From a virus, in IMG/VR virus record IMGVR_UViG_3300027896_000013: a stretch of DNA of 64,000 bases. One strand, given 5' to 3'. Position 1 is the stretch's first letter. Each line of letters opens with the position of its first letter. The notes below the pieces were generated by a model. It saw only the letters and a program-made list of their open reading frames with translations, was not told where the DNA came from and did no database searches. Made by a program: the position numbers and the translations under genes. Shown piece after piece: positions 10,866 to 57,369 of the stretch.

Positions 10866-10886
10866 TAGCATAACTACTTTAACACC

Positions 10887-12064: not shown

Positions 12065-12076
12065 TATACTTAGGTA

Positions 12077-12730: not shown

Positions 12731-12794
12731 CGTATGACGCTTCTTGTGAAGCTGAAATGCACAACAGAAAAACACAAATAAAACAAAAACTAGT

Positions 12795-14087: not shown

Positions 14088-14118
14088 ACTTCCTTCAAAT
14101 AGTTCGTAATATATTCGA

Positions 14119-14853: not shown

Positions 14854-14854
14854 T

Positions 14855-16880: not shown

Positions 16881-16883
16881 CTC

Positions 16884-16912
16884 TTGCACTTCTATTAGAT
16901 ACTTCGTATAAT
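16884..16912 (+). promoter_or_regulatory. sigma70-like promoter of the primase gene (leaderless)
   Basis: TTGCAC-17-TATAAT, 6 nt before GTG 16919. Confidence 0.75.
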
Positions 16913-16918
16913 TCCAGG

Positions 16919-17974: not shown

Positions 17975-18364
17975 CTCAGATAGAGAGCTAAGCTCAGCTG
18001 CGAGACGGGATATCTTCTTCTTTTCACTGCGAGCAATGTCATCAAACATGGTATCACAACCAGCTGCATGAAGCTTTGATTGCAGAGAATCAGGTGTTGG
18101 CGCATTAAGAAATTCAATAAAATTGTCAATCGTAGCAATCCACGCTTTAAGTTCACCTATCTGTTTATGCTTATGTTCGTCGTTCTTCTGGGGTGGTGTT
18201 GGTACATCGTAATCTTCAGCTCTTGCACCACTATCGAGAGAATTCGCCATAGCTGCGCGCTCAGCATTATCAGCATTACCGACGTCTCCACTAGGGTTAG
18301 GAGCGGCATCAACAACTGGAGCATCCTGCTCCAAAGCGAGTATAAAGCGATCTTGGTATTTCAT
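17939..18364 (-). CDS. Hypothetical late protein
   Basis: TATAAATA at 18371-18378; N-terminus MKYQDRFILALE resembles a capsid-targeting sequence. Confidence 0.75.
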   Translation of the reverse strand: MKYQDRFILALEQDAPVVDAAPNPSGDVGNADNAERAAMANSLDSGARAEDYDVPTPPQKNDEHKHKQIGELKAWIATIDNFIEFLNAPTPDSLQSKLHAAGCDTMFDDIARSEKKKISRLAAELSSLSESMKGYLISSNS

Positions 18365-39540: not shown

Positions 39541-41376
39541 ATGGCAAAAAATACAGTCGATTTTACAATTCCAACAGATGGCTATGTAGCCTTCGACGCT
39601 GTTGGATTGCGCGATCTTATTATAGCTCGTCTGAATCAGCAACAAGTGTTCACTGATCAAAACTACACGGGTAGCAATATATCTACGATTATTGAAATCG
39701 TAGCTTACTCATATCACGTGCTGATGTTTTATTTGAACCAAGCAGGTTCCGAAAGTCAATTTACTCAAGCATCTCTTTACGAGAACATTAACAAGATTGT
39801 AAAGGCTTTAAATTATAACCCTATCGGTTATCAAACAGCTACGCTTGCTTTTAACTGTACAGGTCAAGCGAGCCTACCAACAGGTTCACATACCATACCT
39901 CGATACTCATATTTTCAACTAAACGGTGTTGCGTACTCTTTTAACAAAGATGTAACATTTGTAAAGCTTGTTGAAAATACTGATGAGACTCTAACAGATG
40001 TCTCTAGTAATAATTTACTATATCAAGGTGCATTTAAAGAGTATCCTAAATACACCGCTACCGGTGAACCATTTGAGATAGTTACTGTTGCTGTTAACAA
40101 CACAACCACAACTGGTAGCCGTATATTAGTTGATCACTTTAATGTGCATGTTTATGTGAGAGATAATTCACAAACTGTACCGACATATACACAATACACA
40201 CCAGTAGAGTCTCTATTCCTTGAAACTGGTGATGCTAAAGTATACGAAATAAGACTTAATGAAGGTGGTGTATATGAAGTCAAATTCGGAGATGATATAC
40301 ACGGTAGACAGCTTAATACAAATGACGAAGTTCTCATTTACTACTTACAGAGCAGTGGTCCAGATGGTGTAGTTGGTACTAATGCACTAAATAGCAATTC
40401 ACTTCTCTTCTACAACTCTCCGCAATATGCAGATATAACACCAGCTGGTCTTAATATCATTTCTGCTGAGCATGCAGCAATGCTGGTATTCACGAATGAC
40501 GATAACGGTTCTACAGCTTTCCAGGACATTGAAAGCGTATCTAGTATACGTACAAACGCTCTTAACACTTTTAAGACACAGTATCGTTTAATAACGACAA
40601 CTGACTTCGAAACATACATACTTAAAAATTTCGGAAATATTATCTCATCTGTAAAGTGCATAAGCAATTCAGACTTTGTAAATGGTCATCTAAAATACTT
40701 TTTTGATCTCGGCGTCGAGCAGCCTAGTATTGAATCAAGAATACTGCTTAACCAGGTTAAGTTTAGTAGCAGCAGTAATTTCAACAATGTATATGCCTAT
40801 TGTGTACCAGAGTTAGCTAACACAACTAGTTTAAATACAAGACTAAACTATCTCAGCACAGCTCAGAAACAGCTACTATCAACAAGATTGCAGCCGTATA
40901 AACTAATAACAAGCGAGGTTGTTTTTGTTGATCCAATATACACAATAATAGATTTCGGTATAAACAATATTGGTGAGTCACCTACACCTGATATATCAAC
41001 AGATACATACTTGCAGATAGTAGCCTCGAAGCAGCAACAGCAAAACTTCAGCCACATTCAGCAGTCAGCTGCAACAATACTACAGTCATACTTTGATACG
41101 TCAAAGAATAACCTCGGTAAGTTAATCGACTTGACAGATCTATCAACTCAGCTATTAGAGATCCCTGGGGTAAGTAACGTACAGACTGTAAGGGTTACTG
41201 GTAATGTCACGGTAAGTTTACCTGGTTTAAGTTTCATTGCATATAATCCAGTATACCCCGATAATGATATAACGGTATCCCAGCAAAATCTGCAATTACC
41301 ATATTATAAGTTTCCGATATTGAACGACTCTGCAAATATTGTAAATAAAATTAAAGTCATAACCGCTACGTCTTAA
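39541..41376 (+). CDS. gp6: Baseplate wedge protein gp6-like
   Basis: FTDQNYTGSN, YEVKFGDDIHG, YLQSSGPDG, ESVSSIR.NA, RLITTTDFE. Confidence 0.9.
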   Translation: MAKNTVDFTIPTDGYVAFDAVGLRDLIIARLNQQQVFTDQNYTGSNISTIIEIVAYSYHVLMFYLNQAGSESQFTQASLYENINKIVKALNYNPIGYQTATLAFNCTGQASLPTGSHTIPRYSYFQLNGVAYSFNKDVTFVKLVENTDETLTDVSSNNLLYQGAFKEYPKYTATGEPFEIVTVAVNNTTTTGSRILVDHFNVHVYVRDNSQTVPTYTQYTPVESLFLETGDAKVYEIRLNEGGVYEVKFGDDIHGRQLNTNDEVLIYYLQSSGPDGVVGTNALNSNSLLFYNSPQYADITPAGLNIISAEHAAMLVFTNDDNGSTAFQDIESVSSIRTNALNTFKTQYRLITTTDFETYILKNFGNIISSVKCISNSDFVNGHLKYFFDLGVEQPSIESRILLNQVKFSSSSNFNNVYAYCVPELANTTSLNTRLNYLSTAQKQLLSTRLQPYKLITSEVVFVDPIYTIIDFGINNIGESPTPDISTDTYLQIVASKQQQQNFSHIQQSAATILQSYFDTSKNNLGKLIDLTDLSTQLLEIPGVSNVQTVRVTGNVTVSLPGLSFIAYNPVYPDNDITVSQQNLQLPYYKFPILNDSANIVNKIKVITATS

Positions 41377-43592
41377 TGAACCCTAATATATACGTTGAGT
41401 TCGCTGTTTATAACTACAAAGGTGAAACATCTTTGTCAGGTTATACTCTACCGGGTAATGAATTCACATTCGTTGCAAACTTAACTGGTGCAGATAAACC
41501 GATATCTCAACAGTCTGTTACTTGGGATCTTGGTGATGGCACTAGGACAGACGAACTGTCACCTACCCATACCTATAACTGGCCAGGTGTTTACAATGTA
41601 AGTCTCGTCGTGTATGATGCTGCAGGCAATGCATTTTATAGTACAACAACATATACTTTGTCTGTTTACGATCTAATTGGTAGTGAATTACAAGCAACAA
41701 ACTTAAGCGATACGTTTGTAATACCTGCAGGAGATTATTCCCCCTTCTATATCAATCGTAGAAATAGCTGGCAAACCTATTCAGCGCTGAGTGCCATTGG
41801 CTATACCGTAAATTTATATCTATCTGGTAATAATGACCCTGTGGTAGATTTAAAAACATATAATAGCGATGCATGGGCTCATCTACGTCGTAAATCAATA
41901 TTTTTTACAAAGAGTTCCACAGCAGCGGTGACTGAGTACATACCAATATCAAGTGTAAACACTGATGATATTTTACTATACGCTAAGCTTGACGGTAATA
42001 AAGAGTATCAACTCTGTTCACAATCAGAAACTGGTTCTGTTTTTATAGGTACCTCTGGAAGTGCTACAGTATATTTTACAAGCAACACACCAAAGAATGT
42101 CAGTGTATCGGCATTCGGTATACCATCGCTAATATTCTGCACTCTAGATACATCACATTTACAAGATGCATTTACATATAATACCAATTATTTTGATTAC
42201 TTTTCTCCTTCTATAGGGTACATTAATACACAATCCGCTGTATTACCAGTATGGATAACATACTCACCAGCGAACAGATTATCGTTCTCTACTAATGGTA
42301 TAGATACACAAGGTGATGCAACACTCGACACGTTTGAAATTCCATCTATCAGCTGGCAAAATACGCAGATACCCTTTGTTCTAAAGTTAAAGAGTAATAA
42401 TGGATATTCAACACTATTTTACCCACTTCTCAGTTCGAATATTGTTAATATGTCGGGTGCTGGTGAATATTTTAGAGCTGATTTTCAACTACTCTCGGAT
42501 TCAACAGTATTATCTGCAGACTTCTATCAAGACTTTAATAGCGATCTACCAAGTGATGCTGGTGGGTACTTTAAAGGTTATTTTGTATGTCCAGTTACTG
42601 CAACTAACTGCCAGATAGCTGCTATAGTAACGACTAAGGACCCAACGTATTACGACTCTCAAACCTCAACTGTAGTACTTGCAATAACATCAACGCTTTA
42701 TGGTACGAGTAACTTGTTTAACATATACCCACAAACAGGTAAATATTCTATTGCGAAAAATAATGAAAACTTTGATATGCAAGGGTTTTACAATACTCTA
42801 AGACTTCCTGAATATCTAGTAGATAAAGACGTACTGTTTAACTCCTTCCTTGGTTCAATCGCTGGTAATCTTTCAAGCCAGCCGTTTGAATTAGGCAAAA
42901 CAGTATATGAAAGAATAGCGAACTTCTGTGAAAATATTAATGACGTAGATACAGCTACTGTACAATCATTGGTATCTCTTTGCACTCAATATGGTGTAGA
43001 TGTTGGTGAAGTTAATACGGAATACCCACCGCAACTCAGACGTATTATTGATATGATATCAATCAAAAAGTCGAAATTGTTTGGAACATACAACCACTAT
43101 GATCTCAATTTTAGACCTGTCGGTGGCGCAACTGCTAACCCAGGTAAGATAAATCTAGGAGAGCTTATTGATATAAACACAGGTACGTTTAGCTTGAGTG
43201 AGTCTCTGGTAGCTTATAACCGCTTCTATGATAAACACTTCGTAGTAAAGCTACCGGCTCTATCGGGTTATACAGGGTCGTCTACATTCTATCTATCAGA
43301 TTATAATGCTTCTTGGAATTTAGGTTTACCAATAGAGGTACCAGCTGAGGATGTAAACGGTACCAATATTGGTGAATTTTACAGCTTTTATAGGTATCTT
43401 GAATCAACTCAGTGGCCTATAACAAACTCTGTTATCAATTGGGATGATAGCAAGAACACGTTAAACTTTACAGTTAGTTCTTATACGGAGTGGGTTAATG
43501 ACGATGGTATTATGGACAACTTATTAAACTATGAGATTACAAAAGGTTTAAGGTTGTTTACTAGCGCTGTTGATATAACCTACAACAATTAA
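41376..43592 (+). CDS. Baseplate/structural protein with an N-terminal PKD domain (gp7-like position)
   Basis: WDLGDGT...PTHTYNWPGVYNVSLVV PKD signature; follows gp6. Confidence 0.75.
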   Translation: MNPNIYVEFAVYNYKGETSLSGYTLPGNEFTFVANLTGADKPISQQSVTWDLGDGTRTDELSPTHTYNWPGVYNVSLVVYDAAGNAFYSTTTYTLSVYDLIGSELQATNLSDTFVIPAGDYSPFYINRRNSWQTYSALSAIGYTVNLYLSGNNDPVVDLKTYNSDAWAHLRRKSIFFTKSSTAAVTEYIPISSVNTDDILLYAKLDGNKEYQLCSQSETGSVFIGTSGSATVYFTSNTPKNVSVSAFGIPSLIFCTLDTSHLQDAFTYNTNYFDYFSPSIGYINTQSAVLPVWITYSPANRLSFSTNGIDTQGDATLDTFEIPSISWQNTQIPFVLKLKSNNGYSTLFYPLLSSNIVNMSGAGEYFRADFQLLSDSTVLSADFYQDFNSDLPSDAGGYFKGYFVCPVTATNCQIAAIVTTKDPTYYDSQTSTVVLAITSTLYGTSNLFNIYPQTGKYSIAKNNENFDMQGFYNTLRLPEYLVDKDVLFNSFLGSIAGNLSSQPFELGKTVYERIANFCENINDVDTATVQSLVSLCTQYGVDVGEVNTEYPPQLRRIIDMISIKKSKLFGTYNHYDLNFRPVGGATANPGKINLGELIDINTGTFSLSESLVAYNRFYDKHFVVKLPALSGYTGSSTFYLSDYNASWNLGLPIEVPAEDVNGTNIGEFYSFYRYLESTQWPITNSVINWDDSKNTLNFTVSSYTEWVNDDGIMDNLLNYEITKGLRLFTSAVDITYNN

Positions 43593-43601
43593 ATATTGTT
43601 A

Positions 43602-46505
43602 ATGGATTCAGCTATCACATTCACCGATCTAGCCCTGCAGAGCTCTATTACGTATAATAGAGCGAACCTGTCAGCTATCGATAGAAATGCTCCGTTAGCA
43701 TTCTTAGACTGGGTCAAGAACTTTGCAAACATTTCATCTGACCCAGTATTCTTACTAAATGAGTATAAGAAGTATATTAATAAATGGTTTGATGTTACTA
43801 ATTCTAGCTTCAGTTCTAACCAAGATATTATTCGTGAGCTCTACGTTTCACTTTTTCGTAACATAGCAATCAACTATGTAACCACAGAAGAGCGGAGATT
43901 CATTCAAAACCTTGATGTAAATAACCCGTCCGAATTAGCGGTTGTACTGCCGTTGTTAGTTCGCAAGATTAAGGATGTATGCTTACACTATGCTAGCTTA
44001 AGAGATAAAACAAAAGCTGCCGTGTATGACTACAACCTAAAGGGTTCTGAGCATAGTATTAAGCGATTAGTATATGATGAGTTAATTTTAAGCTTCGTTG
44101 ATCCTACTATCAATAAACTGTTTACAGCTGCTGGTATCGATAGGGATACTATCAAGACACAGTTAAACATAATGTTCGAGGAACATTATGATATGGAAAC
44201 CAACTACTTCGATACCAACTCTCAGCTACCTGCTTCAGCATACGAAGCTACAGGTGATAGAGCTGAAATGTTTGCTGCGAATAGTTACCCATTTGATCCG
44301 AACCTGTTTGTTGATTTTGATACTAGTGTGGTATCTGCTATAGAAAAATACCCTGTAATCCTCCAAGAGTTAGGTGATAATTTTAGCGTGAATCTGAACT
44401 TCACGTCGGATGATTTACAGTATCTAAAGGATCAGGACTACATTAACTTAGTTAATAACCTTGATGCGTCTAACTTAAATCTTAATACATTAAAGAGCGC
44501 TTTGCAGCAATTCAGTGGTTCGACTTTTTATTACCTATCTACTAACGCTGATCTAAAGTTCTCATATGATAAGCTATTTGATGCAGACCACTTTACCGAT
44601 TATCTAAACCGTAGATTCCCTACCGTTGCGATGGTACAGAGTGATAAGATAGTTCCTGAGAAGCATGTAGGTAGATTTTTTAGACCTGATAAGCTAGGTA
44701 TTTTGAATTTCCTAGGTTTTAATGTTCATGGCACTGTTACAAGTTTGTCAGCTGACACTATATACGTGTTCCCGGACCCTACAATATATGGTAATATATC
44801 AGGTCTGAGCCGTACAAAATTCCCAACACCGTTTACATTCACTGAAAGTGTTGATGGTTTAAAATGTAACCTAACTAACACTTATAGATTTGGTGAAGCT
44901 ATAAGTGATTTTCTAACGAAGTATAAAGGTTATCAATCACGATCGGAATCTCTGAATTGGGATCCAACAGGTCCATCAAGATTACAAGACCCTGTCGATT
45001 TCTTTACAGGTGCACAAAGACTGGATTGGGCTAATAGTGATGTATTTCCACCTGATACTCAAGAGGTACTACCGATTGACAAGCGACAAGCGACACTGCT
45101 AAACACTAACAAAGTACTATTCCAACATAGGAGTGATGTTTATAATAACGAATACAGCTTATATAAAGAGGTTTATAAATTTGACGATCCTAAAGCTCTA
45201 TACTATAAGGAGAATGGCGAAGCATTAACATGCCTTACATTAAGAGGTCATGTATTTTATGATTCTGTATCTGCATATGACTTCGATTTCTCTGAAGAAA
45301 ATGAGGCGTTAAATTACTCTGGTGTAACCCTCAATACAAATGATAGTATAACTGCAACAAATTTCGATATAATCCTAAAGAGTGTAGATCTATACCCAGA
45401 GTTAGATTGGTATAAAACATCTAATGAATTTGTAGTAACATACTACAATGGTTATACATTTATCGAGATACCGACACCCGGTACAGATATATATGAACTT
45501 GGTGACTTTAGTCAGCCAGATCCATTCACACTCAATATACAAGACAGACCACACGTTTATATGGATTCAGGTCCGTTCTATATTAATGGTGTATTAACTC
45601 TACCTGCAGTGTTCAATGACAATTTTACAGTACAAAATAACCTAGTAGGTGAAACTCTAGTAAATGCGGAAACTCAATTACAAGATGCTGTTGGAACTCT
45701 AAGCGCAGATGTCTCTCTATATGCTCAGCACGATGTATACGGTGAATTATATTATCGTAACTACAACAGTTCAATAATCGAGCCAGCATCTGCTGCTCTG
45801 AGTGGAATGTTTATAAAGTATCCTGGTATTGTCTCTGAAGAAGTGTTTAATAACACAAAAAACATAGACGTTATTCTTGATACCTTGGTAATAGAAACCG
45901 AGTCTTACATGATATTCGAGAAGATTAATTATGTACAGAGTAAGTACCAATTTCTAAACTATCCAGTTGAGCAGAATTATATAGCTCGAGGCAACAATCA
46001 TAACTTCTGTTGCTTTTCTAATATTTGGTTCGATGTTGGTGATCAAGCAATATATGTTGCAGTTACTAACATGGATAACACACAAACTTGGTTACATGAT
46101 AAGACTATATATTTTGACATGTATAAGTATGACTTTGATAATATACATAAGCTAACAATATCGTCTGATTTATCAGCTTTCTCATTGGGTAATACATCTC
46201 TATCTGCTACTGCTGTTGTTTTAGTAGAGCGACCAATATTACATTATTGCCCTGAGGTTGATACATATACATTGAAGTTTCTTGTTAAGGATGTATCTAA
46301 TATGTTTTATCATGTTGATACTACATTCAGTATTGATAATTATGAGACAATATATAACCTTGCTGTTACTGTTTTAACACCGGATATGTATTTGTTTTCT
46401 GAGAATTTTGAAGGTAATCAATTTTCTCCGATTGCAGAAACTATGTATCTGAATGCACCGGGGTCTATGATATCAATTAACAACAATCAACTTGTAATAC
46501 ACTAA
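43602..46505 (+). CDS. Large structural protein (baseplate/tail-associated)
   Basis: ~967 aa; TAAATA before ATG 43602; in the structural module. Confidence 0.7.
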
Positions 46506-48037
46506 TGTCAACAATATACACATCAATTATATCAGGTACACAGGATGGAACCTACGACGGTACATATAGCTCTGATAAGTTCGGTGCTAATCAATATACG
46601 TTGATAAGAACTACTGGAGTAGGTTATAGGCTTATATGGATAGGACGTGGATTCGGTTGGGTTCTATATACGCCTAGCAAGGTAATACTAGGTAATTTCC
46701 CTGATGCTCCTCATAACCCACCAGACACTATACCATACGATTTTAATGGCGGCACTGGGTCAGCGGTTTGGCATAACTATGCACCTGCACCGACCCCAAC
46801 AGCGACTCCGTTACCACCAACACCAACAGCATCGCCAACATCAACACCGACCCCAATACCAACTTCGACTCCGACACCGACGCCGACACCAACGGCAACT
46901 CCTACACCTGTACCAACAGCGACACCTGTACCCACTGCAACTCCTGTACCTACTCCGACTATTGTACCAACAGCAACTCCGATACCACCTACACCCACAC
47001 CTGTACCAACAGCGACTCCGATACCACCTACACCTACACCCTGGATAGGTCCAACAGCTACACCAGTACCAACAGCTACAACGGTACCAACAGCAACACC
47101 AACACCAACGGTATCACCAACACCGTCACCAACACCAACGGTATCACCAACACCGTCACCAACACCAACGGTATCACCAACACCAACGATATCACCTACT
47201 CCGACAGCGACACCGTATGAACCAGCGCTGCCAGTCCTATTTTATGATACTGTGTTCGACGCTCATAAAGATGTAGTTGTTACGGTTGATTACACCGCTT
47301 ATTCAAACAATCTAACTGTATCGCCTAGTGGTAGTATATTAGTAGGCTTCTTACCATTTTATAGAGTTGCTCCAGAGGGTGAAACAGCTGCAGCTGGAGC
47401 AGGTTACTCTAGCGGTGATGTTACTAGCGGTGTTTTAGATGCTCAAGTAGGTGTATGCTTAGATTTCTCTGGTGGCTTTGCTTCTGATGAAACAGGTACA
47501 GGTGGACTAACTGCATATGAACCTAACTCTATAAGCGTCAGAGGACAGGCAGCTAATGGATTCCCACTACTTGCGAATACTGGTAATCTATCCTCTGCCG
47601 CTGTACCATTTAATATAGCACAAGGTACACCTAACAGAACCAGAATTCGTCTAGCAAATCTCGGCACTGCAGTATACGTAGACTGTAAGTACACAACCGA
47701 TCGCGTATTCACAAATTATCTAACAGTTCCTCTAGAGTCTGCAACAACTAGATACTGCAGAGTCTATGTAGCCTTTGAAATTTTAAACGACAATACATAT
47801 GTCGTTATACAAAATGTCAATATAAACGCGTACGATGCAACATTATCATACAGCTATTCTGCAGCAGATTATATAGGTCTCGACCCTAACCCCGCATTAC
47901 TGTCAAGAGGTCAAGTGATTACCGGTTCAAATGATAACTCCGTTCCCGGTACACCTGAGCTCTTTATAATAGATGACCCAGCTAATTCAGGTGCACCTTA
48001 TATAGGTAGTGAGTATATTTCTATAACATACCAATAA
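46505..48037 (+). CDS. Virion protein with a Pro/Thr mucin-like linker and a C-terminal lectin-like beta-sandwich
   Basis: ~145 aa PT/PTATP repeat; C-terminal [18 protein letters not shown] resembles L-type lectin domains. Confidence 0.65.
47098..47184 (+). repeat. 30-nt tandem repeat (~2.9 copies) encoding [10 protein letters not shown]
   Basis: ACCAACACCAACGGTATCACCAACACCGTC repeated exactly. Confidence 0.85.
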
Positions 48038-48045
48038 ATACTATT

Positions 48046-49092
48046 ATGCCAAGTGCAACAGCAACTTTTACTCTTAATGTCTCAGCAATTCAAGCGCTCT
48101 GCGTTGGTCCGCGAGGATCAGCAATGCTCAACGGTTCCGGTGTACCGTCAGACTCTACAGGTCTACCAGAAGACTTTTATGTAGATACGTCTCTCTACCC
48201 GTTGCTCTATAGTTGCTACGGTCCAAAACTATCATCAGATCCGATAGGTACCTGGCCGTTGACAGCTGTACAGTTCCCTACAACAACTCTTCTTGATAGC
48301 ATTTCATCATCACTGTATAGTGAACTTACTGCAATTAGTAACACTGTTAATATCTCAAGCTTATCAGCTCTTAATATTGTTAATAACGGGCTTGCTACGG
48401 TTTTAACTGTTACACAGCAAGGCAATACGTATGGTAAAAATATTGCTACGTTTAATCATAATACTAGCACTACTTTTGTTATAACGAATAGTGGTAATGT
48501 TGGTATAAATGTTTCTGAACCCAATGTAGATACAGCTCTACATGTTGTAGGTGATACGCTTCTAACACAGTCACTTTCTGTTCAAGGTGACATATTAGCA
48601 TCTACAATAAATGTAAGCACCCTTACTGCTGCAAATGGGGGTATATTTGGTAGCTGGTCGTCAATTGTTAGCGCTGGAAGTAATAACCTAGTACAAGTCG
48701 CAGGTTTAAATCTTGGAGATGTTAGCTCTTACATTAATGTACTTTCAGCATATACTGCTGTATTTGCTTTGTTATCATCTTTTGATACTCGACCTGTTCG
48801 TATACATGGTACATTGTTTGAAGTTGGCTCCGGGGATGGCACAGCAGCAATTAATGATAGATTCTTCGTTGTGGATCCAACATGGAATATCAAAAGAGTT
48901 ACTATTGCTGGTAGCGTATCAGCTCTAAGCTCATTCAACTCAAGTGTATATGACGCTAATAAGAATCAGCTACTCAGCGGTCGTCGATCAGCACCAGCAA
49001 GACTAACCGCTATGGTTTCTACATCAGCAGATATCATAGCGTCTTATAACTCGCTACTCGATGCTTTAACAGCTCACGGTCTCATACGTTAA
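48046..49092 (+). CDS. Tail fibre/spike-like protein
   Basis: GPRGS...GSGVP...G..DFYVD; SGNVGINVSEP..ALHVVGD; C-terminal NSLLDALTAHGLI trimerisation-like motif. Confidence 0.7.
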   Translation: MPSATATFTLNVSAIQALCVGPRGSAMLNGSGVPSDSTGLPEDFYVDTSLYPLLYSCYGPKLSSDPIGTWPLTAVQFPTTTLLDSISSSLYSELTAISNTVNISSLSALNIVNNGLATVLTVTQQGNTYGKNIATFNHNTSTTFVITNSGNVGINVSEPNVDTALHVVGDTLLTQSLSVQGDILASTINVSTLTAANGGIFGSWSSIVSAGSNNLVQVAGLNLGDVSSYINVLSAYTAVFALLSSFDTRPVRIHGTLFEVGSGDGTAAINDRFFVVDPTWNIKRVTIAGSVSALSSFNSSVYDANKNQLLSGRRSAPARLTAMVSTSADIIASYNSLLDALTAHGLIR

Positions 49093-49094
49093 TC

Positions 49095-49463
49095 ATGAAC
49101 GAATATCTATTTACTAGAAAGCGAAAGACTCTAAAGGACTGTTATTCTAAAGTCACTAGTAAGGCTAATATAGTAGAAGGTGATTGTGGTTCATATGCTT
49201 CACCTGGTTACTCTTATGTTCCTCAAGGTAGAAACGTTAATACTCTAGGACCTGTACCGCAAGGTTTTCCAGGTCAAGTTACGTCAAAGGTAATACCGGT
49301 TGGTATTAAGATGAAGAGGGTGCGACCTCCCAAGGGAAGACAATCCAGTCATCATTCGAAACAGTTGAAACGTAAAAGTCAGGGTAAAAAACCGTCTTCG
49401 GTTTTACATACAGCGTTGCAGTCCGGAACTTACAAAGAGAAAAGTTTTCAGCCAATTCCTTAA
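49095..49463 (+). CDS. Hypothetical protein
   Basis: Follows the fibre gene; its 3' 158 nt overlap the convergent PRTase gene. Confidence 0.45.
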   Translation: MNEYLFTRKRKTLKDCYSKVTSKANIVEGDCGSYASPGYSYVPQGRNVNTLGPVPQGFPGQVTSKVIPVGIKMKRVRPPKGRQSSHHSKQLKRKSQGKKPSSVLHTALQSGTYKEKSFQPIP

Positions 49464-49758: not shown

Positions 49759-49793
49759 ATCCTATTATAGGCGGAGCAACTTAAGAATCAATA

Positions 49794-50402
49794 TTAAAGT
49801 ATAACGTGAAGTACAGGCATGATACTATAATGCGTACCACTATACTCGCTAGTGCCCATCCATCTAACTGCTGCACCTGCAACACCAGCCTCTGCTTGCT
49901 TTCCGAAGATTGTAAATTTGTGCATTCTAATGGACAATCCGCTACCAGCTAAAGTAGAAAACCTGTTAACCTTATCTAACACTGGTACAGCGACACCCGT
50001 AAAAGCAAACGGTGTAAACGTCCATGGTATACCAAACTTTAATAGTGGTTGAGTTGGAAACTTAACAGATACTTGTCCACTAGGCATTGATAGTTGTCCT
50101 AGATAATCAATACCAATTCCCATACCGATAATATCTGATACTTGATAGATGCAAAACAGGCCACCACCAACGTGTGCAGGTCCATTTGGAGCATACGTCA
50201 TATACGGTACAACTATCCACTTCTTCGACGTTTTTGCTAAAGCATTTGTATCTAACCACTTCTTAGTAATATCGAGAATCGACTGGCTAGATGTTAGTAT
50301 ATTACTGTAGAATTGAGGTGGTGGAGTTGGTGATGCTATAGGCTGTGAATGTGATGTTAAATGGAGCATCACAAAGAATGTAATGTATAGAAATAATCTC
50401 AT
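49794..50402 (-). CDS. Exported/membrane protein with a signal peptide (beta-rich)
   Basis: MRLFLYITFFVMLHLTSHSQ signal-like N-terminus, Pro linker, alternating beta strands. Confidence 0.6.
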   Translation of the reverse strand: MRLFLYITFFVMLHLTSHSQPIASPTPPPQFYSNILTSSQSILDITKKWLDTNALAKTSKKWIVVPYMTYAPNGPAHVGGGLFCIYQVSDIIGMGIGIDYLGQLSMPSGQVSVKFPTQPLLKFGIPWTFTPFAFTGVAVPVLDKVNRFSTLAGSGLSIRMHKFTIFGKQAEAGVAGAAVRWMGTSEYSGTHYSIMPVLHVIL

Positions 50403-51010
50403 GCTAATGGTGTTAGAAATTCTTTCTTGTTTAAGTAAAACGCAGTATCGATCTGTATTGCGCTAGCTGCTCCAGTAGTACTCTTTGCGCTATAATACAC
50501 CCCATACTTCATATTAGGACTGGTTGCATATGCAGATAAAGAAGGGTTTGTTGGATCCGCCCACAGGTACTGATTTAAGAAAGCAAACTGATTTGCCATG
50601 AACGTAAATGTAGATAATTCGAAATATGTAACCGGTGCACTTGGAGCAGTAATCATTGGTATCAAACCAGTTGGTTGATAATTGCTTACAAACCCATCAT
50701 ATGTTATGGTAGTTGTATTCCATGTAATCGTCCAGTTTTTTAAGTTACCTCTATAGTCTCGTGAATTACCAAAATAGCTACCGTTATTACGTATGAAGTT
50801 TTGACTGTACGTTTCAAACCTATAACGACAATTATCATCGATGACAGCTGCAAATACACCAGCTGCTGTTGTGAAATCAGGGTGACTAGTTATAGCAGAT
50901 ACTAGAGAGAATCTTTGACCTGCTTGATCTAACAGATAGTCTGATTGTTTTGAACCTACACCGATAAGAGTATCAATGCTGTTTAGATCGTTTTCAATCG
51001 GAGATGTCAT
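50399..51010 (-). CDS. Hypothetical late protein
   Basis: TAAATA 6 nt before ATG. Confidence 0.7.
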   Translation of the reverse strand: MTSPIENDLNSIDTLIGVGSKQSDYLLDQAGQRFSLVSAITSHPDFTTAAGVFAAVIDDNCRYRFETYSQNFIRNNGSYFGNSRDYRGNLKNWTITWNTTTITYDGFVSNYQPTGLIPMITAPSAPVTYFELSTFTFMANQFAFLNQYLWADPTNPSLSAYATSPNMKYGVYYSAKSTTGAASAIQIDTAFYLNKKEFLTPLA

Positions 51011-51049
51011 ATACAGTATTTACTGAGATGTACAATAAATCAATATACT

Positions 51050-51340
51050 CTATACACCACTTAGCGGTGGTACGCTATTAGATTGCGCAACTCTTGCAGC
51101 GATCTCTCTATCCATATTGCGATTATTGATAGATTGATCAACATATGCTCTCCAGGCGATTAAAGCCTGTAGAACAGAGAAGAGGAGAATTGTAAACAGT
51201 TTAATATGAGGTATCTCTGCGAAGCTGTTATATTTGTCAAAGCCATTATACACAGACATCAGAAACGCAATAGTGATATACAACAACCACTTCGTCTCTG
51301 TGCTGCTATAATGTGCTGCAACAAATCTAAAGAACCTCAT
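51050..51340 (-). CDS. Small two-TM membrane protein, holin-like
   Basis: 96 aa, two hydrophobic helices, IAWRAYVD and a charged tail. Confidence 0.5.
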   Translation of the reverse strand: MRFFRFVAAHYSSTETKWLLYITIAFLMSVYNGFDKYNSFAEIPHIKLFTILLFSVLQALIAWRAYVDQSINNRNMDREIAARVAQSNSVPPLSGV

Positions 51341-51343
51341 AAA

Positions 51344-51775
51344 TTACTGTTTAATAAAAATGTAATGAACATCATGATCATTCTTCATTATGAAGATCGT
51401 GTGGTCATCACTAGCTACCGTATATTCTCTATCCATATCATCTGCAGTTAACTTCTCTTCACCTTCGTGTTCAAGTAATGCATTTATACAACACTCCGGA
51501 CACCACTCGCCTGCAGTGATCTCTGCACTGTCTTCGATCTTATCACCTACAACGTGTACAGCGTAAACCTCTACTTCACCTTCACTACCTCCATGTGATT
51601 CATCATGTTCACCGGGTGTTGGTGCTTCGTCAGAACGTTTGCGATACTCAGGTCCCATACCCTCTTCATCAGTAGACTCCTGAACCTTCAAATATTGTGA
51701 ATAGATGTTCCTATCTGTTGTGTGAGTCTTATTGACAACATTAGTCGCAGTTTTACGTTTTTCTCTTCTTAGCAT
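51344..51775 (-). CDS. Hypothetical acidic late protein
   Basis: TATAAATA at 51781-51788; DRNIYSQYLKVQE motif; CPEC. Confidence 0.7.
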   Translation of the reverse strand: MLRREKRKTATNVVNKTHTTDRNIYSQYLKVQESTDEEGMGPEYRKRSDEAPTPGEHDESHGGSEGEVEVYAVHVVGDKIEDSAEITAGEWCPECCINALLEHEGEEKLTADDMDREYTVASDDHTIFIMKNDHDVHYIFIKQ

Positions 51776-51783
51776 ACAATTAT

Positions 51784-52398
51784 TTATACTCCTGATTCTG
51801 TACTCTTCTCTTGTTTTAATGGTTTATGTTGACGGCGAGCTGAAAAGCGGTCTTTGAGATCCTTATAAACACCCTGATACCTCGCCATAGATCTTGCAAC
51901 TAAATTCTTATCACCAATGTCAACATTGAGTGGTATTATTATTTGCACGCTCTCTGCATCATATATAGGTCCTCGTTTAATCAGACAACCATATACACTA
52001 ATATAATCTGCTATATTCCACTCCATGTCTTTTCTTTCATGACCTTGCAGTTTAAGAGACTCACATACATAGTGAGCAATCACATCCTTCGCTCTCTCAT
52101 CAAATATCTTTGCGACATCTGAATAAGACACTAGTGTATCCATATCCTTTTGCGCTAACAATCTAGTCCGTTCAATAAACTCATCAAAGCTTATTGTATC
52201 AGCTATATGGATACTATTAATATCTACAGTATCTACACTAACATCTATCCTACAAACCTTAGTATCACCTGCTATTTCATGAGTCTTTTTTATAATATCA
52301 GGTAACCTGCTCGTCATCACTATACAAGGCTTGTAATCACCACCGGTCGTAGCATTCTCAACTAACGTATCAAATCTGTATAGTCTATTTCTTTTCAT
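51784..52398 (-). CDS. Paralogue array member 8
   Basis: YRFDTLVE; VYGCLI...IIIPLNVD; LKDRFSARRQHK. Confidence 0.8.
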   Translation of the reverse strand: MKRNRLYRFDTLVENATTGGDYKPCIVMTSRLPDIIKKTHEIAGDTKVCRIDVSVDTVDINSIHIADTISFDEFIERTRLLAQKDMDTLVSYSDVAKIFDERAKDVIAHYVCESLKLQGHERKDMEWNIADYISVYGCLIKRGPIYDAESVQIIIPLNVDIGDKNLVARSMARYQGVYKDLKDRFSARRQHKPLKQEKSTESGV

Positions 52399-52900
52399 GT
52401 CTCCTTTTCGCGAATCTATCTTTAAGCTTTGTTAGATCCATATTGGGCAGCTGTACAATAAATTGTGCTACTTCTTTTTTTTGTGTACTATCAACTTCCA
52501 GTGGTATTAAGAAGCTTAGAGAATATTCACCGGACTTTTCAATAAAACCATACAGCTCATGAGACATTACTCTCATATATAAATTACGTCTATCCATATC
52601 ACTTGTCAGATGAGCATTTGACAGTATTTCATTGTATACGGCACGTTCAATTGCTTCATACTCTACATCTATGTTAGACTCTTCTTTACTCTCACCAGCT
52701 AACATTTCTTCACAGGCGTCTATATAGGTATCTATCGCATCAACCTTACTAGCATTGTCTTCAGTAAGATGTGGGTAATATACCTGACGGGTGAAGCCGT
52801 AATCTAATCGAGTATCTAGATTATCATCATCCCAGACGAGAGCAAATTTTATCTTGAGAAATTTATGAGGTCCGGGGTTAAATGTTTTAAAACTTTTCAT
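52385..52900 (-). CDS. Paralogue array member 7
   Basis: Likely start ATG 52900, MKSFKTF; LYGFIE...FLIPLEVD; LKDRFAKRRHEKK. Confidence 0.8.
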   Translation of the reverse strand: MKSFKTFNPGPHKFLKIKFALVWDDDNLDTRLDYGFTRQVYYPHLTEDNASKVDAIDTYIDACEEMLAGESKEESNIDVEYEAIERAVYNEILSNAHLTSDMDRRNLYMRVMSHELYGFIEKSGEYSLSFLIPLEVDSTQKKEVAQFIVQLPNMDLTKLKDRFAKRRHEKK

Positions 52901-53229
52901 GATTTCCACTCCCGTCTCTTTTTAAACCTATCTAAATATTTCTGCATAGCAGGGTCAGGTTTAGCTTGATTTGGCTGCTTTATAGCGTCATATCTACCAT
53001 ATACAAAATGACCTTCTGTAGCCCACGCTAAATCAAAGTTATAATCATGTAGAAATGCTGGTGGTCGAATTATATCACCACCGACATAAACCATACCGTT
53101 CGCATTAGCTCTATCAATTACCTTTATACGCATTAAAGCTACGCGACCTTCATTACCATCTAGATCATCTGACGGGTGCCGATGTAATTCAATCTCTACT
53201 TCATCATTTATTTTATGCGTTATTTCCAT
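52897..53229 (-). CDS. Paralogue array member 6 (short form)
   Basis: Lacks the N-terminal motif and F.IP core; keeps VYG and YLDRFKKRREWKS. Confidence 0.75.
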   Translation of the reverse strand: MEITHKINDEVEIELHRHPSDDLDGNEGRVALMRIKVIDRANANGMVYVGGDIIRPPAFLHDYNFDLAWATEGHFVYGRYDAIKQPNQAKPDPAMQKYLDRFKKRREWKS

Positions 53230-53765
53230 TGCCTTCGCTCCTTAAATTTATCGACTTTAGATTGGAACTCAGCAGCTGATTTGTCAAGGGTAGAGTCTAA
53301 TGCAAAAGCTACTGAATGTCTGCTATTAGGGTGCACTGTCATAGGTACTACAAACTCCATCCAACCATTCTCTTTTATAGGTAACATAAAACCATAGAAG
53401 TTGCCAAACTCCATATTGTTTATTATGTTACCATACTCAGCTGTATTTTCCTCAACATGAAGATTACGTGCTATCTCTCTACCTATAGAGACGAAAAAAT
53501 TTTTATATCTCTTATGAAACTGATTACCACCGATCCAGGCATCGACATGAGCTACCTTAGCAATATGCTGCCTGACATTATGTATAAATTGTGAGTTATC
53601 TACAATCTGACGCTCGTTAACCGGTGGGAGAGGATGAGTTACACCTGCTACTTCAAAACCATCATCGAAATCTTCAAAAGATTTAGCACCCGGAGGTATC
53701 TTATAGCGTATAGTAAAATAAGTATACGCCATACTACCCTCTAAAAAAATCTTAAACGATTCCAT
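53220..53765 (-). CDS. Paralogue array member 5
   Basis: Own TAAATA (53771-53776); MESFKIFLE; FYGFML...FVVPMTV; VDKFKERRQWK. Confidence 0.8.
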   Translation of the reverse strand: MESFKIFLEGSMAYTYFTIRYKIPPGAKSFEDFDDGFEVAGVTHPLPPVNERQIVDNSQFIHNVRQHIAKVAHVDAWIGGNQFHKRYKNFFVSIGREIARNLHVEENTAEYGNIINNMEFGNFYGFMLPIKENGWMEFVVPMTVHPNSRHSVAFALDSTLDKSAAEFQSKVDKFKERRQWK

Positions 53766-53776
53766 ATTGTTATTTA

Positions 53777-54340
53777 TTACTTCTTCCAGACACGTGGTTT
53801 ACTATACTTGTTATATAGGGGATTAGTATTCTTGCGTACATTTACATCAACTAGCTGCTTCATTACTGATTCTTCTGTACAATTGATACCTAGAGGTATT
53901 AGGAAGTCTATTGAATATACAAAACTACTAGCTTCTTCAGTCTCTTGTTGAAATCCCCATACATCCATATTGTTAAGCTTGTGAGCTAGCATAGGGTCAG
54001 TGAAATTATTAGTACCGTATGCATATACATTAGACTTGATGTCTGGTAATACACCAGCATTATCAAATGCCGACTCTACTTCTTCTATATACTCGTTCTT
54101 ACCTAGTCTCTCATTTATTGAACTATCGATAAAGCGTCCGCAGTTACCAAAGTAATCTATCATATGAGTAATCACGCTAAACTGTGAAAAGTGTTTAAGG
54201 ATGAAAGCACTACTCTGCGTCTGAAACGCAAAGCCAACACTCCAGGGGAACCTAGCATCAATACCACACTCGACAATCGCCCAGCGTTCAACATCGTGTA
54301 TAGTATCTACCGACTCAGTATATTGTTTAAAACTTTTCAT
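53777..54340 (-). CDS. Paralogue array member 4
   Basis: MKSFKQYTE (ATG 54340 or 54349); VWGFQ...FLIPLGIN; YNKYSKPRVWKK. Confidence 0.8.
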   Translation of the reverse strand: MKSFKQYTESVDTIHDVERWAIVECGIDARFPWSVGFAFQTQSSAFILKHFSQFSVITHMIDYFGNCGRFIDSSINERLGKNEYIEEVESAFDNAGVLPDIKSNVYAYGTNNFTDPMLAHKLNNMDVWGFQQETEEASSFVYSIDFLIPLGINCTEESVMKQLVDVNVRKNTNPLYNKYSKPRVWKK

Positions 54341-54906
54341 TTTTTCCATTGTCGCGGTTGTTTATATTTGTCGAATTGCTTAACAAACTGTTTAGCAGGT
54401 CCATCTGATTGGGTACCATGCATCTTCATGTTTTTTAAGACATATATAGTACTATCAAAACTAGTAAAATCCTCTGAGGCGGGTATCAGAAATGAGATGT
54501 AATATCCACCCTCAATACGTCTGAGCTCAGGTTGTATAAAGCCGTAGATAGTACCATTCAATACCCTCATCTGGCGCATCCTGTTCCAATCCTCAAAATC
54601 ATACTCCTCAGCTATCTTGTTAATCTCAGGAGCTATATGCTGTTCATCGTATATATGATTTCTAACCGAGAAGCCATCACTATATCTACCAGTGTAACAC
54701 GTCCGCACTACATGATCACATTTAGATAAAAACCCACCTATACCATTAACCCTCTCAAACTCCCGCTGATGCTCTCGAAGCTCTTTTGTCATACGAATCT
54801 CGAAATATGGAGCTTTGGCCTGTGTCATTATAAAGTCAAGGTACATCCACAAGGCGCCAGGTTCACGCTTGTAAGTCTCTGCAATAAATGTATCAAAGGG
54901 TTTCAT
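54337..54906 (-). CDS. Paralogue array member 3
   Basis: MKPFDTFIAE (ATG 54906); IYGFIQ...FLIPASED; FDKYKQPRQWKK. Confidence 0.8.
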   Translation of the reverse strand: MKPFDTFIAETYKREPGALWMYLDFIMTQAKAPYFEIRMTKELREHQREFERVNGIGGFLSKCDHVVRTCYTGRYSDGFSVRNHIYDEQHIAPEINKIAEEYDFEDWNRMRQMRVLNGTIYGFIQPELRRIEGGYYISFLIPASEDFTSFDSTIYVLKNMKMHGTQSDGPAKQFVKQFDKYKQPRQWKK

Positions 54907-54908
54907 AT

Positions 54909-55484
54909 CTATTTTTTCCACTGGCGCCGTTTTGAGAAGCGGTCACGTAAAGTATTATTTCTCTTAGATAGGTGATCTATCACTGCCTGTTTACTTACCA
55001 CGTTTACACCTAACGGAATTATAAAGTCAACAAAACGATCTAGATCAGTTTTAGCATACATAGTTGGAATCATCAAACCAAACAATTCTTTATTTTCAAC
55101 TGCCTGATAAAGGTCAGGAATCTCAAAGCCAGCCTCCCTAGCATAATACAATACATTCTGATAGATGTACCTCTCAAAACTATTATGATTAAACGCACGC
55201 ACAATAGCTTCGTCAGGTATACTAGGTGTGTTAAGAATACGGCGCGACCTCCCAAGACACTGTCCGAGATAACACGACACCGGCTGAACCATATCAGGAT
55301 CAAAGTCAACAGGCACCTGGAGACCGTAACCATAGGAATGCTCAATTTGACCAGTCTCTACCGTAGCACCAAAGTACCCTACCCTATCATGACTAGGACT
55401 CCAACTGGAAGGTACATTATATGAGAGGTATATACCTATTGGCACATTAAACGACTCAGTTAAAAATGTTTTAAACGAATTCAT
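54909..55484 (-). CDS. Paralogue array member 2
   Basis: MNSFKTFLTE; LFGLMIP...FIIPLGVN; LRDRFSKRRQWKK. Confidence 0.8.
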   Translation of the reverse strand: MNSFKTFLTESFNVPIGIYLSYNVPSSWSPSHDRVGYFGATVETGQIEHSYGYGLQVPVDFDPDMVQPVSCYLGQCLGRSRRILNTPSIPDEAIVRAFNHNSFERYIYQNVLYYAREAGFEIPDLYQAVENKELFGLMIPTMYAKTDLDRFVDFIIPLGVNVVSKQAVIDHLSKRNNTLRDRFSKRRQWKK

Positions 55485-55486
55485 AT

Positions 55487-56062
55487 CTATGTTTTCTGCC
55501 GGCGCGGTTTGCTAAACCTATCCTTCAAAGCTTGGTATTCTGGCGATATTGTACTGCCAGGTTTAAAGTGTTCTATAACAGCTTGTTCATTTGAGACATC
55601 TACACCAAGCGGTATAACAAATTGTGGGTTTATAGATATACTACCATCAGGTGGTATATACAGTCCCCACAGTTTGTAATCAGCACAGAGTTCACGCAGT
55701 TTAGGGATCTGTATATTACCTCGATATTGATTAAGCTTAGCTTCTGTTTTTTCTGGAAGACCATAAGCATCATACGTATATGCTATATCAGAGAATATTA
55801 TGTCACGGCTTAAATCAGGTCTCCATGCTGCTAACCGCTCTTTACACATCATCAGATAATCTTTTAATGTAATGACATTATCTTCTATAAAATTTCCATC
55901 TACACGAGAGCTACCATCCATGACGGTGAAATCACCTACTGTACCTGATGGTGAACCTGTAAATTTTACATCATCCGTATTAGGAAGTATGTAAGTTATT
56001 AACATGATATTACCCACGTTAAAGGTCTCACAAAATGTTTTAAACCCGCTCAACTTTTCCAT
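55487..56062 (-). CDS. Paralogue array member 1
   Basis: TAAATA (56068-56073); MEKLSGFKTFCE; LWGLYIP...FVIPLGVD; LKDRFSKPRRQKT. Confidence 0.8.
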   Translation of the reverse strand: MEKLSGFKTFCETFNVGNIMLITYILPNTDDVKFTGSPSGTVGDFTVMDGSSRVDGNFIEDNVITLKDYLMMCKERLAAWRPDLSRDIIFSDIAYTYDAYGLPEKTEAKLNQYRGNIQIPKLRELCADYKLWGLYIPPDGSISINPQFVIPLGVDVSNEQAVIEHFKPGSTISPEYQALKDRFSKPRRQKT

Positions 56063-56093
56063 ATTAGTATTTACGAGAACCCCGCCGGAAAAA

Positions 56094-56134
56094 CCATATA
56101 GAAAATTCTATAAAAAAACGCGCAAAAAAAATTT
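56094..56134 (+). repeat. Diverged direct repeat, copy 1
   Basis: CCATATAGAAAATTC...GCGCAAAAAAAATTT, similar to 63865-63903. Confidence 0.55.
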
Positions 56135-56454
56135 GAGTATTTGGACGAGAATTTGGACGAAGAAAGTTGCCATGCACCTTCTGTGGAAAAAAAAGTTCTC
56201 GCTATACCAGTCTTATTTTCGTGGTGGGGGCTAATCCCCGGTCGTGTCTCGCAAAACCACCTGTGTTTCTCAGACACAGTCAGTGTTTCTCATATGACCT
56301 ATTAATATAATTAGCATATGTGTATCGATGGGTTCCTTTAAGGTGTTCTAGATGAACATGTTATAAAAATTTGAGGACGGAAATAGAATGTGTACCTATT
56401 CAAACCTCTTAGCACCTCTCAGACACTCTCAGACACTCTCAGGTAAGAATAAGC

Positions 56455-56483
56455 TTGACAGTTGTCGTCAGAGCCTCTATACT
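56455..56483 (+). promoter_or_regulatory. Near-consensus sigma70 promoter
   Basis: TTGACA-17-TATACT, 6 nt before ATG 56490. Confidence 0.8.
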
Positions 56484-56489
56484 ACTCAC

Positions 56490-56603
56490 ATGAAGACTAA
56501 ACCATATTACATCTTAGTCGGTAACCTGACTGCAGAGCAGAGAGAGGCTGCTCGTACCTTCTATCGCCTCCTCGGCTATCAGGAGTGGCAGCCTAAGAGC
56601 TAG
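56490..56603 (+). CDS. Small hypothetical early protein (37 aa)
   Basis: MKTKPYYILVGNLTAEQREAARTFYRLLGYQEWQPKS, directly after the promoter. Confidence 0.6.
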   Translation: MKTKPYYILVGNLTAEQREAARTFYRLLGYQEWQPKS

Positions 56604-56706
56604 TCGCCAGGGAAGAATATATCAGCTACTTCAAGCATCACTAGTGCCAGTACTATTACTACAAAGGCTGTTAGCATCTATATTATTTATATCTGACCAT
56701 AAGAGT

Positions 56707-56741
56707 AGCCTGACAGCTAGTCCTCTTCTAGCTGTCAGGCT
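56707..56741. terminator. 14-bp perfect hairpin between convergent units
   Basis: AGCCTGACAGCTAG-TCCTCTT-CTAGCTGTCAGGCT. Confidence 0.55.
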
Positions 56742-56759
56742 TGTCCCCAACCCCTTAAC

Positions 56760-56984
56760 CTAAAGCTTCTCGATGACAACACTTGGACGACGGACGCGCT
56801 TGATGGGCGTGCAGCGGCAGATGACAAACTCACTGCTGTCACCGCGGTCGATTTGTCGAGTCGCCTCTTTGATAGCCTCCTCCTCGCTGTAGTGCCGAGT
56901 GTAGTAGCCGTCAGTCAGTACCATGAAGGTCACTTGAGTTTTGTCAGGTTTTGTCTTTGTTGGTTCGTCGTCTGTTTGGTTCAT
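56760..56984 (-). CDS. Hypothetical early protein
   Basis: 74 aa; AC-rich leader and TTGCAT-17-TACAAT promoter upstream. Confidence 0.65.
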   Translation of the reverse strand: MNQTDDEPTKTKPDKTQVTFMVLTDGYYTRHYSEEEAIKEATRQIDRGDSSEFVICRCTPIKRVRRPSVVIEKL

Positions 56985-57369
56985 ATGTTTGTTTAATTGT
57001 TACAAGTACATTGTACTGTCTTCATCAACAACATGCAAGCTAATAGTGCAACAACTTTATCAGATAGGCTTTGTTATTAGCTTGATTTCGTTTTCGGACC
57101 TATGCCGAATCCTCTCGCTGCAGCTTGCTTGGCATGGGTCTGTTCGAGCCTTTCCTATCTCCGCGCACTGCTTCTGCCAACGCATCTAAAGCGTCTGTTG
57201 ACTTGTCCATCCCATGCTGGTGGAGTTGTTCAATTAGGTTCATAACCATTTGATTGTTATTGTGAGATGCTTATCAATGTAGGAACACAACATTAAGATG
57301 CTGTAAACAAAATTAATGAGGCAATATAATGCTACTATAATTAATGAATTTTCGTATAAATTTTTCATA

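Follow-up and report, generated by a model that had tools for sequence, protein, structure and literature searches.

The locus considered here raises a simple question: why would a phage carry eight small genes in a row on one strand, and where would their products act? The genes (m1 to m8) lie at 51784-56062 on the minus strand of a 64,000-nucleotide (nt) stretch of viral DNA, IMG/VR record IMGVR_UViG_3300027896_000013, called the window below; the window is the last 64 kb of a 157,201-bp ENA contig on which the array proteins are encoded. The array consists of eight late-type genes of an uncultured T4-like phage, and its protein family is otherwise unrecognised. A sequence-only reading had described eight consecutive minus-strand open reading frames (ORFs) with three shared motifs. 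All eight are present, adjoining without gaps or overlapping slightly, and the motifs occur as described: an N-terminal motif in seven of the eight, a YG...F-x-IP core in seven and a basic C-terminal tail in all. We propose, with a probability of about one half, that the array arose by lineage-specific expansion of late genes and that a capsid targeting leader of the T4 type would direct their products into the prohead.

Judged by gene content, the source phage is a distant T4-type myovirus. The window encodes a family B DNA polymerase, UvsX, a gp41-type helicase, gp32, a clamp loader, TerL, sheath, tube and a gp6-like wedge protein, and its TerL is at most 37% identical to that of any cultured phage. 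Relatives were found through a DNA pattern of a major capsid protein motif (19 IMG/VR contigs). In the genomes G001, G002 and G004, TerL is 58-64% identical and gene order is syntenic with window positions 211-43592; genes for a Peptidase_S77 prohead protease (E 4.7e-34) and for a T4-type portal are present in G002.

The leader is in register with an experimentally mapped signal. The T4 capsid targeting sequence (CTS) is MKTYQEFIAE (PMC8442874), in which residues 4 and 7 have been shown by experiment to act in targeting, and residues 8 and 10 in processing by gp21 (PMC9026906). The array leader, MK[ST]FKTF-h-x-E (h being a hydrophobic residue), can be laid over this sequence position by position. 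The gene m2 (54909-55484, 191 residues) begins with the canonical 10-residue form, MNSFKTFLTE, and m3 (54337-54906, 189 residues from its ATG) with MKPFDTFIAE; both have all four determinants (F4, F7, L/I8 and E10), and m3 matches the T4 sequence at six of ten positions. Four further members have them only when shifted by 1-4 residues, namely m1 (55487-56062, 191 residues, MEKLSGFKTFCE), m4 (53777-54340, 187 residues from its ATG, MKSFKQYTE), m5 (53220-53765, 181 residues, MESFKIFLE) and m8 (51784-52398, 204 residues), in which the leader ..YRFDTLVE is displaced. To this extent, exactly for two members and with shifts for four, the earlier likening of the N-termini to the T4 CTS is upheld. Of the remaining two, m7 (52385-52900, 171 residues from its ATG) begins with MKSFKTF and has no Glu, and m6 (52897-53229, 110 residues) has no leader.

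These assignments depend on the choice of start codon in a tightly packed locus. Within m1-m4, and likewise within m5-m8, the stop codon of one gene overlaps or abuts the start codon of the next: the m3/m4 and m6/m7 junctions are a shared ATGA, in which the downstream ATG overlaps the upstream stop, and m5/m6 and m7/m8 overlap by 8-14 nt. GTG or ATG extensions of m3, m4 and m7 fall within the tail of the preceding gene. For these three genes the ATG giving MK.F... is the likelier start, and the gene caller of a public protein collection picked identical MK.. starts for m3 and m7.

The leader reaches far beyond the array. A scan of IMG/VR with a DNA pattern encoding M-[KN]-x-F-K-T-F-x-x-E (loci L053-L172) found it in at least 120 contigs, and 113 of the 121 matches listed begin ORFs of at least 50 residues. 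Once the first 12 residues are removed, the tagged proteins form at least 46 unrelated body clusters, including P-loop kinase-like (GPGSG), HAD-like (DxDxT) and nucleotidyltransferase-like (HxGH) proteins. The synonymous codons of the leader vary, and position 8, which the pattern leaves free, is mostly Leu, Ile or Val. Among the matches listed, 38 of the 40 leader contigs of at least 19 kb have a CheckV-implied genome size of 130-350 kb, and Peptidase_S77 is found in five of six leader-bearing records that are at least 90% complete (seven of nine at 73% or more). The T4-like TerL of five S77-positive leader records is only 31-38% identical to that of the present phage, and the tag therefore spans deep T4-type lineages. 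One tagged genome, G041 (IMGVR_UViG_3300047548_000652), has MKTFQEFITE, identical to the T4 CTS at eight of ten positions. Podovirus CRP-4 has an untagged homologue of one tagged protein of 102 residues, and the tagged protein weakly matches part of a PHROG annotated as 'minor head protein and DNA pilot'; a T4-like phage of the Kyanoviridae carries a shorter leader, MKTFAELQE, on a P-loop protein. A literature search found no paper containing the MK[ST]FKTF-h-x-E leader strings. This distribution is that of a portable tag. At least 46 unrelated families carry it, mostly in large phages that encode a gp21-type protease, and nearly all the contigs derive from phages of 130-270 kb.

A portable tag need not be an address for the capsid. 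The array products might instead be late cytoplasmic proteins that are never packaged, their N-terminal motif being a generic amphipathic start helix or another signal (for a chaperone, a regulator or stability). Such proteins would act late in the infected cell, in assembly, superinfection control or the timing of lysis, and the tail would bind nucleic acid or a host factor. The presence of the leader at the head of P-loop, HAD and nucleotidyltransferase proteins in other phages speaks for this explanation. Four properties of the leader speak against it: its agreement in register with the mapped T4 CTS, its near-restriction to large phages with an S77 protease, the leaderless podovirus homologue of one tagged body, and the hydrophobic residue at position 8 followed by Glu, as at gp21 cleavage sites. 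We regard an unpackaged role as unlikely overall, albeit one to be taken seriously.

Two further sets of leader-bearing or leader-like genes were observed. In G041, an ORF of 149 residues (145920-146369) with the leader MKSFKDFITE lies immediately upstream of TerL, at the position of the T4 small terminase gene; it has no PHROG match, and were it the small terminase, this would speak against reading the tag purely as a mark of capsid cargo. In the window, three minus-strand genes with late boxes (2997-3428, 5950-8098 and 17939-18364) have leader-like h-x-E starts (MLRFDARSIYRE, MKYQDRFILALE and ..SYIKHLNE) and low-complexity bodies rich in Ala, Pro and Gln; the gene at 17939-18364 is kept in G002 and G004. 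These three may encode scaffold or core-type head proteins, to judge from their composition and starts.

Transcription signals place the array among the late genes. The late box was taken as TAA[AG]TA and scored 0-25 nt before gene starts across the whole window, where 21 of its 80 copies fall in that interval and 1.1 would be expected to; the commonest spacing is 5-6 nt, and the genes so preceded include sheath, tube, baseplate and fibre-region genes. No surplus of sigma70-like sites was seen (17 against 22 +/- 4.4). The TAAATA boxes previously claimed before m1 and m5 are both there, each 5 nt from the ATG on the minus strand: gTAAATAct at 56068-56073 before m1, at the spacing seen for the sheath, tube and baseplate genes, and aATAAATAac at 53771-53776 before m5. 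Upstream, a terminator-like hairpin followed by GTGGTTTTGC (56261-56279, minus strand), the only terminator-like site in 51000-57000, divides a block of small genes from the array. Downstream of m8, the next gene on the minus strand (51344-51775, 143 residues, acidic, outside the family) has its own perfect TATAAATA 5 nt upstream, and the array therefore ends before it. Read at consensus level, the array looks like two late-type units, m1-m4 and m5-m8.

The position of the array also has a counterpart in related phages. The array lies upstream of a phosphoribosyltransferase gene. At the corresponding place in G001 (180627-186043) and G002 (9604-15093), 5-6 tandem genes precede the phosphoribosyltransferase gene closely and in the same orientation; they are alike only in a start of 10-20 residues, MNKDxHLxFE|AY, and several have late boxes. 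By analogy, this is the pattern described for the internal-protein loci of T-even phages, whose proteins share 'only a conserved CTS' (PMC3012670). The rows in the two relatives resemble the array in lying upstream of the phosphoribosyltransferase gene, in strand relation, in late boxes, in tandem arrangement and in a shared start of 10-12 residues, which in both cases ends in h-x-E followed by Ala or Thr. They differ from it in the leader itself, in having mutually unrelated bodies and in lacking a common C-terminal tail. Searches of G001, G002 and G004 with the family profile and the tail pattern found neither the array family nor the tail.

Elsewhere in these relatives (G002, IMGVR_UViG_3300025405_000009, 14-8338; G001, 186675-192191), dozens of small early-region ORFs start with MKNKN.. 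and are preceded by a conserved ..tatactgatNgt. They look like mobile cassettes of a promoter plus a start, by analogy with the PeSL type. Promoter-plus-start cassettes of this type have reportedly been described for T4-type phages.

How the members are related to one another was assessed with leave-one-out hidden Markov models (HMMs; Z=1e6). Seven are recovered, at E 8e-14 to 8e-4: m1 (5.8e-9), m2 (7.7e-14), m3 (8.9e-9), m4 (1.2e-10), m5 (1.5e-6), m7 (3.1e-10) and m8 (7.9e-4). Their common order is a leader, a variable N-terminal part of ~100 residues, a core of ~45 residues and an amphipathic-basic tail of ~20 residues. The core comprises a YG hairpin, an F-x-IP strand and a helix, and reads LWG..FVIPLGVD in m1, LFG..FIIPLGVN in m2, IYG..FLIPASED in m3, FYG..FVVPMTV in m5, LYG..FLIPLEVD in m7 and VYG..IIIPLNVD in m8. 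When leader and tail are trimmed away, only m1, m2, m4 and m7 still match one another in leave-one-out profiles; an hhalign comparison of these four with m3, m5 and m8, likewise trimmed, gives 90% probability and E 1.4e-6, over only 44 columns around YG...F-IP. Profile comparisons of the members detect no likeness across the whole set in the first ~100 residues of the bodies. By these comparisons, the part common to the seven is the leader, the ~45-residue core and the tail, and the shared scaffold that had been envisaged is thus confirmed for the core and not beyond it.

The eighth gene is of a different kind. The HMM of the other members does not recover m6 (E 3.3), which lacks the F-x-IP core as well as the leader, and m6 without its tail has no similarity to the main family. 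It aligns at E 5e-10 with an orphan gene ~7 kb away (63093-63461, minus strand, 122 residues), which has an m6-like body, an array-type tail (LKRFDKRRKHSS) and a box, cATAAGTAct, 2 nt upstream. Profile evidence therefore makes m6 and the orphan a second family that has only the tail in common with the main one, and the array is not the single family of eight paralogues that had been claimed.

Nor is the hypervariability that had also been claimed borne out. A Joint Genome Institute (JGI) contig is 100% identical over 3927 nt, m1 included, and this one comparison gave no sign of hypervariability at strain level; the paralogues themselves are old, with scrambled synonymous sites. The codon table of the members shows invariant Arg written as CGC, CGA, CGT, CGG, AGG or AGA, Ser as AGC, AGT, TCA or TCG, and Pro as CCG, CCC, CCT or CCA. 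Since conserved residues are written in codon families that are not interconvertible, selection acts at the level of the protein, and the duplications are old.

This last point bears on the possibility that the shared ends are nothing but junction cassettes at the level of DNA, in which the codons of the tail provide the ribosome site and start context of the next gene. DNA repeats in the array are indeed limited to the stretches in which tail codons run into leader codons (29-56 nt, 75-86% identical), and the tail codons supply GGA, GGAG or AAGG just before the next ATG. The non-interconvertible codon families largely refute this explanation, however. In addition, more than 20 nt separate the DRF part of the tail from the following start codon, and the tail is retained where no family gene follows, at m4 (where a late box comes next), at m8 and in the orphan. 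A tail that is carried by two unrelated bodies and kept in such places is more than a translational junction can account for alone, and we consider the cassette explanation highly improbable.

The tail itself, an amphipathic stretch running into K/R-R-x-W/H-K-K, is predicted by a weak AlphaFold2 model to be helical up to its basic cluster. It reads DRFSKPRRQKT in m1, DRFSKRRQWKK in m2, DKYKQPRQWKK in m3, NKYSKPRVWKK in m4, DKFKERRQWK in m5, DRFKKRREWKS in m6, DRFAKRRHEKK in m7 and DRFSARRQHK in m8, where an extension of 11 residues follows. Across all six frames of the window, a regular expression for the tail has exactly nine matches, each at the C-terminus of an ORF: the eight members and the orphan. 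Scans of G002 and G004 with a tail expression and of IMG/VR with a DRFxKRRxWK DNA pattern gave eight matches, none of which ends a plausible ORF and all of which look like chance. As far as these scans go, the tail is private to this phage and not a widespread tag. By analogy it could plausibly dock on an acidic scaffold, on DNA or on a common partner. A more specific and rather improbable idea, which we offer tentatively, is that the tail (..L-x-D-R-F-S-K-R-R-Q-W-K-K, ~20 residues) would be a second, independent and portable signal for sorting or docking. Cargo loading would then use two signals, an N-terminal CTS that is clipped off and a retained C-terminus that anchors the protein to scaffold, DNA or a hub protein, and the joint of tail, stop, start and leader would serve as a recombination cassette into which new bodies can be plugged. 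The presence of the tail on two unrelated bodies, among them the two leaderless proteins m6 and the orphan, is in keeping with this idea.

Searches for outside relatives returned nothing, and the earlier statement that the family is not recognised holds. Neither the main family nor the m6-type family has relatives among about 15 billion proteins. For all eight proteins, Pfam and PHROGs gave nothing at E up to 1 beyond noise, a profile search of PDB sequences gave no match, and no homology to IPI, IPII or IPIII emerged from these three collections. A profile search of 1.84 billion cluster representatives returned the phage's own eight proteins, its sole foreign match (P0010) being a spurious repeat protein, and a word-index search of 5.8 billion clusters likewise found nothing beyond the phage's own proteins; the profile of m6 and the orphan matches only itself. 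At the level of DNA and locus, blastn of the array against 50,697 phage records gave no match, and searches for related loci seeded with m2 and with the neighbour at 46505-48037 gave nothing. The main-family profile found nothing in ten related or leader-bearing IMG/VR records except one match to the leader alone. Of the HMM and metagenome search that the sequence-only reading had proposed, the outcome is thus profile kinship for seven members and no relatives outside.

Nor could a fold be assigned with AlphaFold2 and Foldseek, which had been proposed as a test for a common one. AlphaFold2 models reached a predicted local distance difference test (pLDDT) score of 53 with the 8-sequence alignment and of 62 for the C-terminal 80 residues with nine sequences, both too weak. 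With these weak models, Foldseek against PDB and BFVD gave no fold match (best E 0.4-0.5), and neither did VIA wide (best Z 3.1). The ESM Atlas held no usable neighbours of m2, whose own model there has a pLDDT of 0.33.

These empty searches also bear on a third alternative, in which the proteins would be accessories on the outside of the virion, either interchangeable proteins associated with the tail fibre or baseplate or decorations of the capsid, attached by the C-terminal core and tail and using the variable N-terminal parts for host recognition. Swappable fibre tips are built from a common C-terminal module and a variable remainder, and the array proteins resemble them in this; the late-type timing would fit, as would a distance of only ~2.3 kb from a block of large late genes (41376-49463) that itself follows the baseplate wedge gene. 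The array is nevertheless on the strand opposite the fibre genes, with five other genes between; its proteins have no fibre-like repeats, trimer motifs or match to fibre or chaperone families in Pfam or PHROGs; and a clip-off h-x-E leader would have no role there. An external location is, on balance, decidedly unlikely.

For the prohead, the best-supported course of events that can be read from these sequences is that m1-m5 and m8, and perhaps m7 in uncleaved form, would enter the core by means of their leaders, which would then be cut off after the Glu. The leader, M-x-S-F-K-T-F-h-x-E, would bind the scaffolding core, and the phage's presumed gp21-type protease would clip it after the Glu, leaving mature proteins of ~170-190 residues that would remain in the head and exit with the DNA. 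The shared core and tail would form a common module for docking or binding to the acidic scaffold, DNA or a single partner, and the divergent N-terminal parts would give each copy its own specificity. The conserved ~56-nt joint of tail, stop, start and leader would also offer homologous sites at which unequal crossing-over could expand and reshuffle the array. That the cargo would serve counter-defence or host take-over is a guess, made by analogy with T4 IPI* and Alt.

Several observations weigh against a prohead destination. The protease and head genes lie outside the window, in which no Peptidase_S77 was found, and the S77 evidence comes from the genomes of relatives; moreover, a complete 69-kb record with the leader gives no S77 match. 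A loose regular expression for the leader is not enriched among late genes, although it is too permissive to inform. In three of the nine proteins that end in the tail, the leader is absent or incomplete: m6 and the orphan begin without one, and that of m7 has no Glu. The leaders of m1, m4, m5 and m8 are off register as described above. Apart from the tail, the proteins are acidic to neutral (isoelectric points of 5.2-8.4 for whole proteins and 4.5-6.6 for bodies, over 170-204 residues, with only the last ~10 residues basic), unlike the T4 internal proteins, which are basic and of 8-20 kDa. Finally, the kinase-, HAD- and nucleotidyltransferase-like enzymes that carry the widespread leader have no obvious need of packaging, so the tag could serve another purpose. 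The incomplete leaders and the bodies that are not basic count in turn in favour of unpackaged late proteins, as does the fact that no fold or family match provides a link to the virion.

The array and the internal proteins of T4 agree in their short N-terminal tag, in which position 4 is aromatic, position 7 is Phe, position 8 is Ile or Leu, and a Glu at 9-10 precedes a small residue. In both cases the genes are late genes of a T4-type phage, and the tag is common to diverse proteins clustered in a plastic locus. T-even internal proteins have only the CTS in common (PMC3012670, PMC9026906). The array differs in having eight copies, of which seven are true paralogues with a conserved C-terminal core, and in its extra C-terminal basic tag, which we have not found described for T4 internal proteins; its bodies have no sequence or profile similarity to theirs.

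A second comparison is with the head proteins of SPN3US and phiKZ, whose paralogues form a family A (pfam12699) of 2-7 members and a family B of up to 20 and are processed by a gp21-related protease (PMC5694885). In SPN3US, gp53 and gp54 are 34% identical, yet have an identical N-terminus of 15 residues, and copy number varies between related phages (PMC5694885). These giant-phage proteins and the array are alike in being multi-copy, diverged paralogues. The former are unrelated in sequence to the array, have propeptides that are mostly longer than 100 residues and are cut at A/S-x-E, and have been seen in virions by mass spectrometry, whereas the array proteins are known from their genes.

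For the tail, the nearest likeness is to C-terminal peptides that dock proteins in capsids, such as the basic C-terminal helix-turn-helix of the P22 scaffolding protein and the cargo-loading peptides of encapsulins. Like these, the tail is a short C-terminal peptide, amphipathic then basic in the array, on unrelated bodies. It has no sequence similarity to them and occurs only in this phage, and the likeness is one of analogy.

Some other features of the window may be mentioned. Downstream of the array, a minus-strand protein of 202 residues (49794-50402) has a signal-peptide-like start (MRLFLYITFFVMLHLTSHSQ), and another of 96 residues (51050-51340) has two hydrophobic stretches and a weak homologue in G002. 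Before early genes, TTGAnn-17-TAtaAT ends only ~5-8 nt from the ATG (e.g. 170-210, 5215-5255, 14075-14118, 16880-16918 and 49759-49795); few genes have a Shine-Dalgarno sequence, and most predicted mRNAs would be leaderless or nearly so. Pfam identifies QueC at 5256-5963 and, within 10 kb, GTP cyclohydrolase I just upstream of the window, which together suggest a 7-deazaguanine modification of the phage DNA. The last ~90 nt of the 157,201-bp contig directly repeat preceding sequence (L001 1-98 against window 63913-64000), possibly through an artefact of assembly or as a terminal repeat.

What was already known, then, are the T4 internal proteins with their CTS and the families of giant-phage head paralogues with conserved N-terminal propeptides (PMC5694885). 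What is new is the protein family, the C-terminal tag that also occurs on a family without leaders, and the wide range of proteins headed by the MK[ST]FKTF-h-x-E tag. If the prohead reading is true, the head cargo of natural T4-type phages is far more varied than that of T4 itself, with its three internal proteins and Alt. The finding of the tag is possibly more useful than the array itself, as injected proteins of uncultured phages could then be predicted by a simple rule of sequence, and such proteins would be a natural place to seek counter-defence factors and tags for payload delivery. The array contributes a family marked at both ends, with a C-terminal tag as the second, and such a design would lend itself to direct testing in the T4 packaging system.

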